Assembly (NCBI GenBank): GCA_963814375.1
Contig: CAWFCQ010000007.1
Location: forward strand, 224,001 to 288,000
DNA: 64,000 nt
Direction of reading: 5' to 3'
From: an uncultured Chloroflexia bacterium
GTDB lineage: Bacteria; Chloroflexota; Limnocylindria; QHBO01
Part shown: in pieces, positions 56,372 through 63,021 of the stretch
How the letters are laid out: each line of letters begins with the position of its first letter
Position numbering within the stretch: position 1 is the first letter of the stretch
Notes under the pieces: model-generated
What the model was told of the DNA's origin: nothing
Databases searched by the model: none
Seen by the model: the letters and a program-made list of their open reading frames with translations, nothing else
Position numbers and translations under genes: made by a program

Positions 56372-57760
56372 TCACCGCGTCGCGATGATGGCGTAGGTCA
56401 CCGCGAAGGTCGCCTCCGCGAAGAGCGCGACGCGATCAAGGTCGACGTTGCCGATGTCATCGCAGGCGAGGTGATAGCACGCGTCCGGCGCCGGCCCGCC
56501 CCCACCGGCTCCGGGCTGGGCAGCCGAGCCGGTCTCGCTGGCGCCGGCGAAGAGGCCGCCGGTCGGGATGCCGGCGGCGGCAAAGCCGAAGTGATCCGAC
56601 GACCCGCCGAGGTCGACCGACTCGAACTCCTCCCCGCGCTCGGTGAGCCAAGCCTCGTAGCTCGAGGTGATCGCTGCCGAGCCCTCGGGCGCGCTCGGCT
56701 CGTCGTACACGAGGGTCGCCCCGTCGAGCGATCCTGCCATGTCGATGTTGAGGTAGGCGGCGGGGTCGTCCTCCAGCGACTCGACGTAGGCGCGCGATCC
56801 GATCGTGCCGAGCTCCTCGGCTCCCCACAGTCCGATGCGGACCGCCGAACCGTCCGGGACGCCGCCCTCGGAGAGGCCGCGCGCGATCTCGAGCATCGCC
56901 GCGACGCCGCTGCCGTTGTCATTCAACCCGGGCCCATCCAGCACCGAGTCGAGATGGGCGCCGAGCATGACCACATCCTCGCCGTCTCCCAGCTGGGCCA
57001 CGACGTTGCGAAGCGTCGCCGGCGCACGCTCGGTCTCGATGACCAGTCGGACCGGCTCGTCACCCATGGCCCCCAGCGCCTCCACCGCCTCGCCGGTGAC
57101 GCTGACGACCGGGAGCTCGATGCCTTCCGGCTCGATGAGCGTGGGGCGGAAGATCTCCCCGGGTCCGCGGTCCGGATAGCCGACGAGCAGCGCCGCGGCG
57201 CCGGCCTGTGCTGCGTTGAGGGCCTGCTGACGCCTGAAGCAGCCACCCTGGACCGTGAGCGCGATCTCGCCATCCTCGACCGCCGAGAAGTGCTCGGGCT
57301 CGCACCCGCTCTCGTCGAGCAATCGGACCCGTCCGGTGACGTCGCCGCCAGGCGAGTAGATGAGGGCGTGCAGCTCGTCCGGTGCGAGGAAGGCGCGCTC
57401 GCCGACCTCGAGCCGGCCGCCGGGGAGCTCACGGAACCCGGTAAACGACACCTCGGGGGTTGACACCTCGAAGCCGAGATCGCGCAGCGCATCGGCCGCG
57501 TAGTCCACCGATGCCTCATACCCGGCGGTCCCGGCGAATCGGATCCCCTCGTTAGCGTCCGCGATGGCCTGGAGCGCCTCGAGGTGCTCACGGAGCCGGT
57601 CGACGTCGGCGACGAAAGACGGAGACGCGGGAAGGCTCGCATCGACGTTGCTGGCAGCTGGTGCGTCCGGGCTCGCGGGTGAGGTCGAGGGTGCCTGGAT
57701 CCCGCAGGCGGCGAGGAGCAGCGCGAAGAGCGCCGGGGCGACGCGCCGTGATCGGTTCAT
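56372..57760 (-). CDS. M28 aminopeptidase lipoprotein with PA domain
   Basis: LLAACG lipobox; GAHLDSV, NDNGSG, WGAEE, YLNIDM, SDH, YH. Confidence 0.9.
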   Translation of the reverse strand: MNRSRRVAPALFALLLAACGIQAPSTSPASPDAPAASNVDASLPASPSFVADVDRLREHLEALQAIADANEGIRFAGTAGYEASVDYAADALRDLGFEVSTPEVSFTGFRELPGGRLEVGERAFLAPDELHALIYSPGGDVTGRVRLLDESGCEPEHFSAVEDGEIALTVQGGCFRRQQALNAAQAGAAALLVGYPDRGPGEIFRPTLIEPEGIELPVVSVTGEAVEALGAMGDEPVRLVIETERAPATLRNVVAQLGDGEDVVMLGAHLDSVLDGPGLNDNGSGVAAMLEIARGLSEGGVPDGSAVRIGLWGAEELGTIGSRAYVESLEDDPAAYLNIDMAGSLDGATLVYDEPSAPEGSAAITSSYEAWLTERGEEFESVDLGGSSDHFGFAAAGIPTGGLFAGASETGSAAQPGAGGGGPAPDACYHLACDDIGNVDLDRVALFAEATFAVTYAIIATR

Positions 57761-57794
57761 CTGCACACCGATACCCCGCCGAGCGGCGGACGGT

Positions 57795-59420
57795 TCATGT
57801 CCGGGACAGCGCTCCGCGGTACAGGTCGAGCAGCCGCGTGCTCAGTCCAGGCCCCGACGAGACCAGCTCACGGAACTCGTCGGCCTCGAGGGCCAGGAGG
57901 CGCGTCTCGCCGACGGCGGTCACCGATGCGGTGCGAGGCGAGTGACGGAGCAGCCCGATCTCACCGAAGAGGTCACCAGGGCCGAGATCGCGCAGGTGAA
58001 GGCCGGCCGGCCCCTGCGTGACCCGGACCGTCCCCTCCTCGATGAGATAGAACCGATCCGACGCGTCCCCCTCGCGCACCACGACCGTGCCGGCAACGGC
58101 CTCCATCGGCCGCAGCTGGCGAGCGGCCGTCTCGAGCCGGGCAGCGGGCAGCCCGGCGAAGATGGGGTGCTCGAGGAGGCGGGCACGCGCCGGATCGAGG
58201 GGCTCCGGCTCACCGCGGCCACCGGACAGGGCGAGCGCCGCGAGAACGCCACCCACCGAGACGACCGCGCAGCCGATCAGCACCTGGGCCACGCCGATCG
58301 CGCCGGCGAGCACCGGGACGATCAACGAGCCGAGGCTGTAGAGGATGGCGGAGGTGGTCTGCAGAACACCCATCGCGCGGCCGCGAAGGGCGTCGGGCAC
58401 GATCCGCTGGATGAGCGTGGTGTTGACCACGTCGAGCAGGAGGAGACCGGCAACCGCGATCGCCATCGCCACCATCGCCGCCGGCAGATTTCCGGCGAAC
58501 GCCAGCCAGGCGAGCCCGATGCCTCCCACGATCCCGCCGATGAGCAGCGGCACGCTGAGGCGGCGGGCCAGCAGCGCCCCGCCGGCGATGCCCGCCACCA
58601 CACCCCCGACGCCCGTCGCCGCGTTGAGGTACCCAGTGCCGGCCTCCCCCGCATCCAGGACGTCGAGGGCGATCACGACCGTCAGCACGCCCAGCCCGCC
58701 GCCCACCAGGCTGGTCGCCGAGTCGAGGACGAACGGGCCCGACAGCGGACCGACCAGCGATCGCCAACCGGGCGGCGCGGGAGCTTCGACAGCGTCGCCG
58801 GCCAATTCCTCGCCTGGCGCTGTCGAGGACGACGGGACCTTCAGTCGCCAGAGCACCACGGCGACGACACCGAACGACACGGCGTTGAGCAGGAATGCCC
58901 CGGCGAGATAGCCGGTGGCGAGGAGGATGCCGGCCAAAGCGGGACCGACGATGAAGGCGACGTTGTCGAGCGTGGCCCATGCGCTGTTGGCCGGCCCGAG
59001 GTCGCGCTCGTCGACCAGCATCGGCAGCAACGAGGCGATCGCCGGCCCGAAGAAGGTCGAGAAGCAGGCGGCCAGGATCGAGAGCGCCACGATCACGATG
59101 GTCGGCGCGCCCGCGACGACCGCCGCGGCCAGGGCGAGCATGATCACGCCACGCGCGACATCGGTGACGAGAAGGACCATGCGACGGTCGTATCGGTCAG
59201 CGACGATCCCCGCCGGCACGGACAGCAGGACGTACGGGAGGATGCGGGCGGCACCCACGATCCCGAGCAGGACCGGTGAGCTGCTCTCGGCGTAGACGAC
59301 CACGAGGACGGCGACGAGGTAGAGCCAATCGCCGATGCCGGAGATGAACTCGCCGATCAGCAGGCGCGCCAGCGCGCCGTTGCGGCGGAAGAGGTCGATG
59401 TAGGTCCCGAAGAGGCTCAC
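57795..59420 (-). CDS. MFS transporter fused to a C-terminal cyclic-nucleotide-binding domain
   Basis: About 12 TM with GIVADRYDRR; C-terminal VVREGD...FYLIEEG...LGPGDLFGEIGLL...RTASV. Confidence 0.9.
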   Translation of the reverse strand: MSLFGTYIDLFRRNGALARLLIGEFISGIGDWLYLVAVLVVVYAESSSPVLLGIVGAARILPYVLLSVPAGIVADRYDRRMVLLVTDVARGVIMLALAAAVVAGAPTIVIVALSILAACFSTFFGPAIASLLPMLVDERDLGPANSAWATLDNVAFIVGPALAGILLATGYLAGAFLLNAVSFGVVAVVLWRLKVPSSSTAPGEELAGDAVEAPAPPGWRSLVGPLSGPFVLDSATSLVGGGLGVLTVVIALDVLDAGEAGTGYLNAATGVGGVVAGIAGGALLARRLSVPLLIGGIVGGIGLAWLAFAGNLPAAMVAMAIAVAGLLLLDVVNTTLIQRIVPDALRGRAMGVLQTTSAILYSLGSLIVPVLAGAIGVAQVLIGCAVVSVGGVLAALALSGGRGEPEPLDPARARLLEHPIFAGLPAARLETAARQLRPMEAVAGTVVVREGDASDRFYLIEEGTVRVTQGPAGLHLRDLGPGDLFGEIGLLRHSPRTASVTAVGETRLLALEADEFRELVSSGPGLSTRLLDLYRGALSRT

Positions 59421-60265
59421 TCCGCCGAGCCGGCCCGGTGGCGCCACGGATGTCGGCGGCCCGGATTGTCGGCCACGCTGGTCAGCACCGCCTTGACCTC
59501 GAACGGGCTGAGGCCGGGATGCTTCGAGAGGATCAGGGCCACCAGGCCCGCGATGTGCGGCGCCGCGAAGCTATTGCCCGTGGCCACCGTCGAGCCGCCA
59601 TCCTTCCAGGCGATCGGGACGTCCACCCCCCAGGCGCCGAACTCGACCGGAGGGGACGGGTTGTAGTAGATCCGCCACGGATCGGGCTCGGGATGGGCGG
59701 CAACCGAGAAGACCGATGAGAAGAGCGATGGATAGCTCGGCGCCGGCACGTTGTTCGCGGCGCTGACCAGGGCCATCGACTGGAAGTAGGCGCGATCGGC
59801 CAGATCGTGGAAGACCGGATACAGCGACTCGCTCTTCGAGGAGAGACTTAGGTTGCAGACCTCGAGCCCCTGCTCGATCGCCCACTCCAGCCCCGCCGCG
59901 AAGGCCGTCCCCTTGCCGCGCAGGTCGGCGCCGAGGACGCGGATCGAGACCAGCTCGACCTCCGGCGCCATCGACAGGATGATGCCGCCGCACGCCGTGC
60001 CGTGGCCGAACATGTCGACGCCCTCGTCGGGAACGACGACGGGCCCATCGTCGGTCATCTCGACGGTGACGTTCTGGACGACGCGGCCGGCGAGACGTGG
60101 GTGGTCGTTCTCGAGCCCCGAGTCGATGATCCCGACCCGCACCCCGGCCCCCGTCGCGCCGCCCCAGGCCCAGTCGCGCGTGAGGCCGCGCAGGCGAAGC
60201 CGCCGACGCAGCTCGCGACGGGGATTGGCGAACGGCTCAGACCATGCCGGCAGCTCCGGCGTCAT
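59417..60265 (-). CDS. Small cytoplasmic S8 (subtilisin-like) serine peptidase
   Basis: IIDSG, GHGTAC, SAANN, GNSFAAP; no signal peptide. Confidence 0.92.
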   Translation of the reverse strand: MTPELPAWSEPFANPRRELRRRLRLRGLTRDWAWGGATGAGVRVGIIDSGLENDHPRLAGRVVQNVTVEMTDDGPVVVPDEGVDMFGHGTACGGIILSMAPEVELVSIRVLGADLRGKGTAFAAGLEWAIEQGLEVCNLSLSSKSESLYPVFHDLADRAYFQSMALVSAANNVPAPSYPSLFSSVFSVAAHPEPDPWRIYYNPSPPVEFGAWGVDVPIAWKDGGSTVATGNSFAAPHIAGLVALILSKHPGLSPFEVKAVLTSVADNPGRRHPWRHRAGSAE

Positions 60266-61041
60266 CGGCGCATGGAGCTGCGCTGGCCACGCTCAGCATG
60301 ACCGGCGACGACCTCGAGAATATCGGCCACCAGGTCGAGCTCCCGGTCGCTGAGCCCGCGGAGCCGCGCGACCTGGTCGACGAGCCGCCAGAAGGGCGCA
60401 TCCTCGTCAGCGTCGAGGCCCGCCGTCGCCGTCGAGACCGCCGCCTCGACCTCGGCATCGGTCAGCTCGCCGCCGAGCTCGCGAAGCACGGTGCCGATCA
60501 GCCGCGTCGTGTCGCGTTGCACCTTGGCCGCCCCGATGGCAACCGTTGCCTGGCCGGCGAAGACGCCGAGCAGCTCCATGTCTCGCAGCGAGAAGGTGGC
60601 CGATGAATGCTTGTCGAGGACCTGGAGGACGCCGACCACGGCGTCCTCGCCGGTCAGTGGCGCAGCGGCGATCGAGCGCGGGACATAGCCCGTCTGCTCG
60701 GCGGCGTCGCGATTGAAACGTGGATCGCTGGCGACGTCCGAGAGGGCGAGTGCCTGACCGGTGGAATACACGAAGCCAACGATGCCCTGCGTGGGCGGCA
60801 CAGAGAGGCCGATCGCGCCCGCGCCCTTCTCACCGGCGGCGACGCGAAAAACGAGCCGGTCCGGATCCGGCTCGAAAAGAGCGATGGAGGCGGCCTCGGC
60901 ATCGAAGAGGCGCACCGTGGCGTCGACGATGCTCTGGAGAAGCCTCGTCTCGATGTCGCCCTGGAGCCGCCGACCGACGGCGGAACGCCGCGACGCCGCA
61001 ACGAGTGCGGCGATCGCGGCATCCACCGGAGGGTCTGCCAC
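60262..61041 (-). CDS. Stand-alone GAF-domain protein
   Basis: DAEAASIAL, LVFRVAAG, GIVGFV, DVASDPRF, TGYVPRSIAAAPL, GVLQVLDK, FSLRD. Confidence 0.88.
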   Translation of the reverse strand: MADPPVDAAIAALVAASRRSAVGRRLQGDIETRLLQSIVDATVRLFDAEAASIALFEPDPDRLVFRVAAGEKGAGAIGLSVPPTQGIVGFVYSTGQALALSDVASDPRFNRDAAEQTGYVPRSIAAAPLTGEDAVVGVLQVLDKHSSATFSLRDMELLGVFAGQATVAIGAAKVQRDTTRLIGTVLRELGGELTDAEVEAAVSTATAGLDADEDAPFWRLVDQVARLRGLSDRELDLVADILEVVAGHAERGQRSSMRR

Positions 61042-61057
61042 CGGCGTGGCTACCGGT

Positions 61058-61502
61058 TCAGCGCTTCAGGGTCCCGTGACCCTCGGTGTCGTCTTCCTCG
61101 GCGCGGCGGCTCAGCCCGCCGATGTGGCCCTCAACGTCGTCCTCGTCGGCACGCTTGAGGACGCCGTGGCCCTCCGTGTCGTCCCTCAGCGCGCTTGAGC
61201 ACGCCGTGACCCTCGACGTCGTCTTCGTCGGCACGCTTGAGGACGCCGTGGCCCTCCGTGTCGTCCTCGTCAGCGCGCTTGAGCACGCCGTGACCCTCTG
61301 TGTCGTCCTCATCGGCGCGCTTGAGCACGCCGTGACCCTCGGTGTCGTCGTCAGTCGCGCGGAAGCCCGACTGACCGCCTTCCTGGATTCTCTCGTCGTC
61401 CATCATGTGACCCTCCACTGAATCGTCATCGTGTGCCTCCCCGCCGAGCGAACCCGGTCGGGAGAAGCCCTCCATCGGCGGACGCCGCCGGTAGTTGTCC
61501 AT
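61058..61502 (-). CDS. Tandem-repeat acidic peptide precursor-like protein (about 148 aa after repairing a 2-nt deletion near 61184)
   Basis: ORFs 61131-61502 and 61058-61312 join into one repeat protein; AAGGA RBS; synonymous differences between units. Confidence 0.8.
61061..61355 (-). repeat. Seven roughly 42-bp coding tandem repeats (ADEDD[T/V]EGHGVLKR and variants)
   Basis: Five units end GVLKR, one IGGLSRR, one GTLKR; an eighth degenerate DDDSVEGH lies upstream. Confidence 0.92.
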
Positions 61503-61562
61503 GCGATCCTTCGCCTCCTAGCTGGCAGCGTACTCGCATCCAATGTCACGAATCCTAGGCCC

Positions 61563-61627
61563 GGTGATGACTTTCGCAGCATCGCTGACCGGACAGATCC
61601 GATGTCGGTTACGCGACAGTGTTCACC
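61563..61627. promoter_or_regulatory. Two candidate CRP-family binding sites
   Basis: GGTGA-N6-TCGCA (61563-61578, 8/10 match to TGTGA-N6-TCACA) and CGCGA-N6-TCACC (61612-61627, 7/10). Confidence 0.5.
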
Positions 61628-62318
61628 GCGCTCCGTGCCGCTCGAGCTCCGCGAGATCGTGGATCACGAGCGTGTCACGTTCGATGCTGATGAGTCCGTC
61701 GTCGACCAAACCGCTCAGAAGCTTGTTCACGCTCTGGCGCGTTCCGCCGATCATGGCGGCCAGGTCGGACTGAGTGTAGGGCCAGTCGAGCTCGACCCGG
61801 CCGGTGGCCTGCGGCGAGGCGTCCCGAGCCACGCGCACGAGGCGCATCGAGAGGCGGCCCGCAAGGTCCAGGAAGTGCAGCTCCTCGACGTGACCGGTGA
61901 GGCGCCGCAGCTCCTCTGCCAGGGCGTGGAGGAGGGCGGTCACGAGATGCGGATCATCCCTGAGCAGGTTGAGGAACGGCTCGCGCGGCAGGGCCAACGT
62001 CTCGGTCGGCTCGATCGCCGTAGCCGTGGTTGACCTGGGCGAGCTGTCGAGCAGCGCGAGCTCGCCGAAGAAGTCCCCCGGCTTGAGGCTGGCGATGATC
62101 GCCTCCTCGCCCTCCGTCGACGGCAGGACGATCTTGACGCCGCCGGCCGCCACCACCTGGAGCGAATCGCCGATGTCACCCTGGTGGAAGATCACCTCGT
62201 TGCGCCGGAAGCGCCGCCTGCGCATCTGCGCCGCGATCGCGCGGAGGGCCTCGTCGGTGACGTGCGCAAAGAGGGCGCACCGCCGAAGGCTGTCGACCGC
62301 CAGGGATTCGTCCAGCAC
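61623..62318 (-). CDS. Crp/Fnr-family regulator (cAMP-receptor type)
   Basis: IFHQGD, PGDFFGELALLD..PRS, HTH TQSDLAAMIGGTRQSVNK. Confidence 0.93.
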   Translation of the reverse strand: MLDESLAVDSLRRCALFAHVTDEALRAIAAQMRRRRFRRNEVIFHQGDIGDSLQVVAAGGVKIVLPSTEGEEAIIASLKPGDFFGELALLDSSPRSTTATAIEPTETLALPREPFLNLLRDDPHLVTALLHALAEELRRLTGHVEELHFLDLAGRLSMRLVRVARDASPQATGRVELDWPYTQSDLAAMIGGTRQSVNKLLSGLVDDGLISIERDTLVIHDLAELERHGAR

Positions 62319-62571
62319 GCGTGATCCTCAGACTCGGGCGAATGAGCAGGGCAGTGCGGACACTCTCGTGGTGTGCCTCTCCGCCGTCAAGGGGTCACCA
62401 ACGCGTTTTCCCCAGGTGTCATGCGGCCGACACGAGGAGCGCCGCGGACGGACATCACGCCCATCGGGACGTTGACGACCCGGCTGTCGCCCGCTTGCTC
62501 ACGAGGACGGGCACAGCGGCGGGAGGATGGCACCAGGCAAACGAGCCCACAACGCTCGAAGGAGGAATCCG

Positions 62572-62945: not shown

Positions 62946-63021
62946 GCGGGAGTAGCTCAGCTGGCAGAGCGCGACCTTCCCAAGGTTGAGGCCGCGGGTT
63001 CGATCCCCGTCTCCCGCTCCA
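62946..63021 (+). tRNA. tRNA-Gly (CCC)
   Basis: Acceptor stem GCGGGAG/CTCCCGC, anticodon arm CGACC-TTCCCAA-GGTTG, GGTTCGATCC T-loop, encoded CCA; 76 nt. Confidence 0.96.

Follow-up and report, generated by a model that had tools for sequence, protein, structure and literature searches.

For the gamma subunit of quinohemoprotein amine dehydrogenase, a small protein, cleavage precedes export and is carried out by QhpE, a cytoplasmic subtilisin-like protease encoded together with it (PMC7876137). A partly similar arrangement was found here in a cassette of five co-oriented minus-strand genes, located in a 64,000-nucleotide stretch of DNA (hereafter, the window) from a metagenome-assembled genome of Candidatus Limnocylindria (Chloroflexota; 2.5 Mb, 8 contigs, 89% complete). 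These genes encode a Crp regulator, a small repeat protein (REP), a GAF protein, an S8 subtilase, and a major facilitator superfamily (MFS) transporter carrying a domain that binds cyclic nucleoside monophosphates (cNMPs). The likeness to QhpE, QhpC, and QhpF lies in the fact that a subtilisin-like protease is encoded beside a small candidate substrate and a transporter. The cassette differs from that system in that no radical-SAM QhpD, QhpC, QhpG, or dehydrogenase subunits were identified among its genes or in the flanks scanned; in addition, its exporter belongs to the MFS and not to the ATP-binding cassette family, REP is built of tandem repeats and has no Cys sites for cross-linking, and three putative cNMP sensors are added.

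The cyanobactin precursor PatE, which is cut by the subtilisin-fold proteases PatA and PatG, is made up of several units whose hypervariable stretches are framed by short, conserved recognition sequences. In REP, conserved short elements also alternate with hypervariable stretches and a subtilisin-fold protease is encoded nearby, but the cassette has a single protease, no heterocyclase or macrocyclase domain, spacers of very variable length, and a non-cyanobacterial host. In the case of the yeast alpha-factor and the fungal repeat proteins processed by Kex2, an S8 protease acts on a multi-copy precursor, the last copy of which ends at the stop codon; these systems belong to the secretory pathway, depend on signal peptides and on convertases with a P-domain, and are cut at obligatory dibasic sites, whereas in the cassette signal peptide and P-domain are both absent and dibasic sites are not conserved. 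The Phr peptides of Bacillus are short, strain-variable, and released by subtilisin-type proteases, but they are secreted first and cut outside, and each has its Rap receptor; neither secretion-first processing nor Rap pairing was seen at the cassette. Since it includes no modification enzyme, the cassette is not a cluster for peptides that are made by ribosomes and modified after translation (RiPPs), as this term is usually understood. For Bacillus and Planococcus, PMC6220982 describes intracellular subtilisin proteases (ISPs), S8 enzymes devoid of a signal peptide and a classical prodomain, with a short N-terminal extension containing LIPY/F. The cassette S8 resembles them in having no signal peptide and a short conserved N-terminal extension, and differs from them in that LIPY/F is replaced by LPAWSEPF; the ISPs are, moreover, general stationary-phase proteases with no link to a GAF protein or to a substrate made of repeats.

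The cassette was first singled out in a reading of the DNA by a model (hereafter, the original prediction), which described it as a prohormone-like system unlike any known to it, in which a cytoplasmic protease would release peptides at dibasic sites for export under cNMP control. No paper on the core motif of REP or on the cassette was found in the full-text literature, the coverage of which does not extend to subscription journals, and the claim that the system had not been described before holds within these bounds. What emerges is a conserved module wired to cyclic nucleotides and not described before, the biochemical function of which we infer from its genes. In the reading that we favor, with a probability of roughly 0.45, the cassette is built around REP, a disordered, strongly acidic multi-unit protein, whose processing in the cytoplasm and subsequent export are controlled by cNMPs. 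The original prediction is in this respect partly supported, being right in outline and wrong about the dibasic mechanism.

The order Crp-REP-GAF-S8-MFS was found to be identical in all 20 same-genus loci analyzed (14 with all five genes and 6 cut by contig ends), while the flanks of the cassette differ between these loci; this synteny confirms that the cassette is a conserved unit. In 20 loci belonging to other genera, from two families, GAF always adjoins S8, a Crp gene is present in 17 cases, and the MFS match is strong in 11 and weak in 4, Pfam having detected MFS and cNMP-binding domains in the weak-match locus L094. The repeat ORF (open reading frame) that the original prediction expected to find beside homologs of the protease was present in the 14 complete same-genus loci and, with at least two cores, in 16/20 other-genera loci, to which one locus with a single core can be added. 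Family f3 shows a rearranged cassette, often with two REP genes, one of which, ending in SPSSRGE, lies between MFS and S8, and the other, with a conserved C-terminal helix, upstream of Crp. Orthologs of S8 (55–94% identity) were identified in 131 of the 301 genomes of the class sampled; leaving out the window genome, they occur in 78/103 genomes of family f1 and 52/91 of family f3, and in none of the 92 genomes of family f2. At least two same-strand matches to the core motif were detected in 92 of the 131 S8-positive versus 13 of the 170 S8-negative genomes, these tallies including the unpublished genomes G144, G312, G109, G266, G256, and G089. In all five of those 13 S8-negative genomes that were checked, the matches were scattered over contigs and did not form arrays, and none of the eight S8-negative members of the window's genus carries an array.

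In a second class, that of genome G316, the link of which to Acidimicrobiales rests on the database label of one locus, the S8 profile detected orthologs in 6/301 genomes (E 1e-86 to 1e-96). GAF, Crp, and MFS with its cNMP-binding domain accompany S8 in loci L117, L119, and L121, GAF and MFS in L122, and GAF alone in L118, whereas L120 carries none of them. The order in L117 is Crp, a 41-amino acid (aa) ORF with two DDTEGH cores, GAF, MFS+cNMP, and S8. Motif ORFs were identified in three of these six loci, namely L117 and two degenerate cases, within the 12.5–14.7 kb fetched. The cassette is present in at least two classes. A large hybrid histidine kinase of 1626 aa, which has two receiver domains and about six GAF domains, is also encoded beside the L117 cassette (L117:2156-7036).

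Orthologs found in relatives of the source genome confirm that the small ORF corresponds, as had been supposed, to a real conserved multi-unit protein: intact REP genes consist of a single ORF of 112–162 aa with 4–8 cores. No Pfam or NCBIfam family was matched by REP, and all its public entries are annotated "hypothetical protein." The REP proteins are acidic, with a median isoelectric point (pI) of 4.5 and a net charge of about −0.15 per residue, and Cys occurs in only 3 of 192 of them. The conserved element is the acidic core D-D-D-[V/T]-E-G-H, which is the universal part of the family. Over 915 cores in 221 proteins, the frequencies (percent) at positions −7 to 0 are D53 D71 D78 D86 [V54/T44] E99 G100 H100; past the His, conservation falls off sharply and the residues are variable. 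Upstream of the Asp run, the second position before it is commonly A or T, and the position preceding that K or R. Across the family, K or R is often present 10–11 residues ahead of the core His. The EF-hand consensus, D-x-[DNS]-x-[DNS]-G, calls for a hydrophobic residue at position 8 and an acidic one at position 12; the core, D-x-D-x-E-G-H and variable past the His, does not correspond to this or to a DxDxDG calcium loop, and no Pfam calcium-binding family was detected. A protein atlas gave feature-level look-alikes in Actinomycetota at 0.89–0.90, which serve as a lead only.

The spacers between the cores are basic and hypervariable, are between 4 and over 30 aa long, and often have sub-repeats of their own (GVHTS, GKLQ, ARSAAKDI). 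They evolve far faster than the rest of the cassette: between the window and locus L025, S8 is 94% and GAF 89% identical and 31 of the first 32 REP residues are shared, while the spacers read GVLKRA and INKLRGIA, respectively. Two same-genus members, as well as members of other genera, lack the genus-level N-terminal region of REP (PPMEGFSRPGSLGGEA). The KR or RR ending of the units, which had been taken for a feature of the system, proved to be particular to this genome: in other species, a single K, R, or Q is present, or none, as in the spacers GGKFQAT, RFQAA, AGRLQAT, and RSPLKAT. The C-terminal phase of the array is constant, since 175 of the 221 REP proteins end 2–12 aa, mostly 4–6 aa, past the last EGH; 94 of these 175 have a terminal K or R, and the tail is often a truncated copy of the protein's own spacer (e.g., GGKFQ, RMLK, KRTR). 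This is the phase expected when the last copy in a multi-copy precursor requires no cut on its C-terminal side, but the phase could also follow from how the array is built.

The S8 protein carries a Peptidase_S8 domain (PF00082) at residues 39–267 (91.9 bits, cut-off 21.8). As stated in the original prediction, the catalytic triad is intact: D48, H88, and S232, as well as the oxyanion residues N171/N172, are invariant in 30 orthologs. The absence of a signal peptide on S8 and REP was also confirmed, their N-termini, as read from the sequence, having no hydrophobic stretch; the two may share a compartment, as originally proposed. The nearest relatives of S8 by sequence and fold are true subtilisins, the nearest PDB chain being subtilisin BPN′; unlike the kexin/furin convertases (S8B), this bare catalytic domain has no P-domain. 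The best NCBIfam match is the QhpE model NF049966, with 110.9 bits, which is below the cut-off of 165. The scores are also below the cut-offs for the type VII mycosin model TIGR03921 (110.2 bits, cut-off 278.75), the C-terminal hydrophobic anchor of which was not seen in the sequence, and for the PatA/PatG model TIGR03895 (15.2 bits, E 0.0068, cut-off 421). The LPAWSEPF extension, nearly invariant at residues 4–12 (about 60230–60256), may be an ISP-like autoinhibitory element; its placement in the predicted structure is of low confidence (predicted local distance difference test, pLDDT, of about 50). Residues R/K116 and K118, which are conserved, occupy the positions of BPN′ S101 and Q103 in the wall of the cleft, and are presumably well placed to contact P3 and P5, that is, the Glu and the Asp run. 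The prediction of complexes between REP residues 1–105 and S8 or GAF gave ipSAE values of 0.07 and 0.01 (mark 0.32), which count neither way.

The nearest solved structures to the GAF domain are PDE2A GAF-B, CyaB2, PDE10A, and PDE5 (E 1e-12 to 1e-9), along with the GAF domain of an HD phosphohydrolase. The protein therefore resembles cNMP-binding GAFs and is a candidate cyclic-nucleotide sensor; in its AF2 model, the pLDDT is about 90 in the core and lower in the tail. With the Crp regulator and the cNMP domain on the MFS transporter, this agrees with the cyclic-nucleotide wiring originally proposed. The long homologs of S8 fall mainly into two groups, Ser/Thr kinase fusions and GAF-S8 fusions. 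In the former (about 35 clusters, including P0262), the kinase is located at the C-terminus of an S8 domain with about 50% identity; to our knowledge, this subtilase-kinase architecture has not been described. Three long homologs bear source names pointing to Acidimicrobiales, and two of these have the kinase domain; the full-length kinase-S8 query gave no match in 101 genomes of the second class. Among the six GAF-S8 fusions inspected, P0230 and P0234 are clean and have retained LPAWSEPF in their linkers, whereas P0229, P0231, and P0236 contain frameshift-like Arg/Pro-rich stretches and P0277 is scrambled. Open frames of about 545–557 aa were also considered as GAF-S8 fusions and rejected, none being in a single stop-free frame at the 12 loci checked. 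On the evidence of these domain architectures, the S8 clade is regularly tied to a signaling domain, GAF in Limnocylindria and a Ser/Thr kinase in the homologs with about 50% identity.

The regulator belongs to the Crp/Fnr family (Pfam E 1e-25 for cNMP_binding and 1.5e-14 for HTH_Crp_2), and is 77–92% identical among same-genus loci; it is not a CRP equivalog (96 bits, NCBIfam cut-off 266). Ahead of REP lies the palindrome TGTCG-N6-CGACA, and half-sites with a 5-6-5 geometry are typical of Crp/Fnr sites. Both half-sites are invariant in the 11 same-genus intergenic regions aligned. Three perfect copies occur in the 2.5-Mb genome, as compared with none in the case of the reversed-pattern control, and a perfect palindrome is present about 110 nt upstream of REP in 24 and upstream of Crp in 15 of the 35 REP-anchored loci. 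It was also found ahead of the MFS gene in L085 and L089 and ahead of a small REP in L095. The palindrome fits control by the adjacent Crp-family regulator, which would bind it, and the copy with one mismatch upstream of Crp suggests a possible autoregulation. On the 3′ side of the palindrome come a conserved TAGGAT (TA.GAT in the intergenic alignment) and then a GGAGG ribosome-binding site; a sigma-70 consensus scan found no full promoter, and TAGGAT is a putative −10 element. The only terminator-like hairpin lies inside the GAF gene and is at chance level. The other two perfect sites are located between atpA and atpG, which encode ATP synthase alpha and gamma (G000:C3:226285-226300), and beside a cupin-domain gene adjoining that of a TPR/STAND protein (G000:C4:328416-328431); they pointed to no function, and could be chance occurrences or additional targets of the regulator.

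In the mechanism that we propose, the adjacent Crp-family regulator would bind TGTCG-N6-CGACA and drive REP and, in other lineages, also its own gene and the exporter gene. The GAF protein, which would be translationally coupled to S8 and appears fused to it in some lineages, would sense a cyclic nucleotide and gate S8. The latter would recognize the D-D-D-[V/T]-E-G-H core of each unit and cut REP into short peptides, which would exit via the cNMP-gated MFS transporter. Subtilisins usually prefer hydrophobic, any, small, and large residues from P4 to P1. Based on this preference, on the fact that conservation stops after the His, and on the basic residues R/K116 and K118, the preferred register would be that with [V/T]-E-G-H at P4–P1 and the Asp run on the P side. 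In view of the constant C-terminal phase, a second cut, forming the unit boundary, would occur after the basic residue closing each spacer. The hypervariable basic stretch, if it is the product, would suit a diversifying signal, and the conserved acidic/His peptide would suit a metal-binding role. Taken in its most specific form, that of a second-messenger-gated "polyprotein dicer" in which, in soil Chloroflexota and Acidimicrobiia, cAMP or cGMP would cause REP to be cut at the acidic mark and species-specific short peptides to be exported by the nucleotide-gated MFS as a diversifying signal between cells or as a secreted metal-binding peptide, the proposal is doubtful.

Several observations weigh against processing and export. 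We infer the binding, the cleavage and its position, the ligand, and the export, and since the S1 loop of S8 is 6 residues shorter than that of BPN′, the specificity of the enzyme is not readable from homology. The spacers, in view of their variable length and frequent sub-repeats, resemble a linker under weak constraint no less than a bioactive peptide. Some REP proteins have helical C-terminal tails of 42–43 aa beyond the last core, of the type MNPILARELSRARERD..., and others have tails of 12–13 aa ending in SPSSRGE; these extensions fit poorly with a simple string of cut units. The helix-tail subclass of family f3 (L089, L092, L093; P0123–P0125, P0149) shows the pattern MNP[IV]LAR[ED]L[AS]RA+ERD[IV]QR... 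over about 42 aa, and neither type of tail matched any known family as far as seen. Motif ORFs are missing from the stretch fetched in 3 of the 20 other-genera loci and within the 12.5–14.7 kb fetched in 3 of the 6 second-class loci, and 5 of the 20 other-genera loci show no MFS match. The co-occurrence counts overstate the association, because related genomes are not independent and a single assembly gap removes adjacent genes together. Lastly, MFS transporters are not classical peptide exporters, and the match of the cassette MFS to the ryptide exporter is weak (E 8e-4).

The five-gene arrangement with the domains originally named was confirmed by the ORF coordinates and by Pfam, with which every domain of the Crp, GAF, S8, and MFS genes was detected. 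The coordinates of the cassette, around which the G+C content is about 70%, are listed in the table. They agree with the spacings claimed, namely 16 nt between REP (stop 61058) and GAF (start 61041) and a 4-nt overlap between GAF and S8 (60262–60265). The 4-nt overlap claimed between S8 and MFS holds if the MFS gene begins at the GTG at 59420, but becomes one of 31 nt from the first possible start at 59447; the alignments of MFS orthologs often begin at query residue 10, which corresponds to this GTG, and the latter is probably the true start.

Table. Positions in the window of the cassette genes and of the sequence elements associated with them.
Feature	Position	Strand	Description
Crp/Fnr-family regulator	61623..62318	-	cNMP_binding + HTH_Crp_2, 231 aa
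REP, both frames together	61058..61502	-	small repeat ORF
REP frame A	61131..61502	-	123 aa; N-terminal region M..YRRRPPMEGFSRPGSLGGEA.DDDSVEGH.M and four units, then frame lost
REP frame B	61058..61192	-	last three units and stop codon
GGG run, +1 frame shift of REP	61183..61185	-	one extra G, assembly or mutation
GAF-domain protein	60262..61041	-	259 aa; GAF at residues 33-169 and C-terminal helical region
S8 subtilase, putatively cytoplasmic	59417..60265	-	282 aa, catalytic domain only
MFS transporter (MFS_1/MFS_3, EntS-like) with C-terminal cNMP-binding domain	57795..59447	-	Pfam, NCBIfam
Palindrome TGTCG-N6-CGACA, perfect, candidate operator	61603..61618		between Crp stop and REP
Palindrome copy with one mismatch	62417..62432		about 100 nt upstream of Crp start
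TAGGAT, -10-like hexamer	61552..61557	-	about 54 nt downstream of palindrome center

Tandem Repeats Finder detected the REP repeat with a period of 42 (6.8 copies, score 310) and a period of 84 (score 362). The seven consecutive units of the original prediction are real, and each of them ends in KR or RR here, but they do not form one ORF, four being in frame A and three in frame B, a +1 shift that the original prediction read across. Frame A goes out of register at gctgaGGGacgac (61181–61190), where the removal of one G would make the unit continuous. The public contigs break at 61186 with no indel reported, and speak for neither two nor three G. In the few-contig assemblies of loci L038 (G020), L042 (G021), and L043 (G022), many frame breaks occur in S8, MFS, RsgA, and REP, which suggests that these assemblies are rich in indels and makes it risky to read frameshifts in this group as biology. 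Since relatives have intact single ORFs and REP is broken along with neighboring genes in these other few-contig assemblies, the extra G is probably an assembly error rather than a real mutation. In a soil metatranscriptome, contigs cover parts of REP with 0–1 mismatches, and one of 200 nt spans the REP stop to the GAF start; this is a weak hint that REP is transcribed, and co-transcribed with GAF, as RNA libraries may contain DNA carry-over and contig depth cannot rank genes.

Other genes and domains are located in the vicinity of the cassette. A tRNA-Gly(CCC) gene lies at 62946–63021 (+), about 630 nt upstream of the Crp gene, and the cassette is missing from 8 of the 33 same-genus genomes sampled, which makes a tRNA-adjacent accessory island conceivable. 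Directly downstream of MFS, at 56372–57766 (−), is the gene for an M28/PA-domain aminopeptidase with a lipoprotein-like signal (MQMNRSRRVAPALFALLLAACG); this gene accompanies the cassette in L025, L029, and L041 and not in L028, L037, or L039, and therefore belongs to the variable flank. That the aminopeptidase trims peptides outside the cell is pure speculation. In accordance with the original prediction, no RiPP-modifying enzyme was identified among the cassette genes or in the scanned flanks, which differ between loci. In family f3, a heavy-metal P-type ATPase is encoded a few kb from the cassette in L089, L093, L094, and L096, with an HMA domain in three of these loci and a cupredoxin in two; this neighborhood could reflect a metal link or an inherited gene order. 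An Ogt-like methyltransferase domain is present near the cassette in L089 and L094, an M24 peptidase in L089, L092, and L096, and a class III cyclase-STAND ATPase beside the cassette in L094 (L094:9550-12999).

Instead of being a precursor, REP might act whole, as a disordered, polyanionic cation or metal binder or as a regulatory decoy, with GAF-S8 merely setting its level by degrading it upon a change in the cyclic-nucleotide signal. The acidity and near absence of Cys of the REP family, the Asp-rich loop with one His per unit (readable as D-x-D-x-E-G), the fact that the acidic/His core is conserved rather than the linker-like, sub-repeated spacers, the conserved C-terminal helix of some members, and the ATPase near four f3 cassettes would all suit a protein of this kind. 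We nevertheless consider it rather unlikely, because no Pfam family of calcium or metal binders is matched by the motif, the constant end just past a basic residue is not needed by a storage protein, an exporter accompanies the cassette in most lineages, and the ATPase is limited to one family, in which it may be an inherited neighbor. It is less probable still that REP, GAF-S8, and MFS are only co-regulated in one Crp regulon without any enzyme-substrate relation, REP being, for example, a stress hydrophilin. The sole direct link between them consists of their neighborhood and a shared operator-like site, and in f3 REP does not keep a fixed place among the other genes; but even where it shifts, REP remains within a few kb of S8, the arrays are almost restricted to S8-carrying genomes, and the pairing recurs in the second class, where S8 is about 50% identical and REP much shorter.

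The dibasic logic put forward in the original prediction, that of a kexin-like convertase cutting past KR/RR as in the case of the yeast alpha-factor, found its support in the ends of the seven units of this genome, and the K or R common 10–11 residues before the His across the family would also suit it. It is not borne out by the comparison: many orthologs have a single K, R, or Q at that place, or none, the invariant element is the acidic core, and S8, devoid of a P-domain, groups with the true subtilisins by sequence and fold. We consider it very improbable. Little can also be said for the idea that the repeat is not a gene at all, but a non-coding tandem repeat or, in this genome, a pseudogene. 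The broken frame in the window speaks for it, whereas the motif is kept at the protein level with synonymous codon variation in two classes, relatives have intact ORFs preceded by a ribosome-binding site, and RNA-library contigs cover REP; this possibility is accordingly the least probable of all.

If the cNMP-controlled processing and export module is confirmed, it would be a bacterial counterpart of the multi-copy prohormone processing of eukaryotes, assembled from other parts, namely a subtilisin of the plain type, a sensor with a GAF domain, and an MFS transporter gated by nucleotides, in which an acidic mark would be recognized instead of dibasic sites. It would also provide a first function for MFS transporters with a cNMP domain and for a clade of cytoplasmic subtilases tied to signaling, and define a new class of unmodified multi-copy bacterial peptides, the transcription, processing, and export of which would be placed under one messenger. 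All the parts of the cassette are small and soluble, apart from the transporter, and these claims are directly testable in E. coli and in vitro. Since the Limnocylindria, an uncultured class, abound in soils, a signaling peptide or metallophore produced by them would, if the proposal is true, be ecologically relevant.

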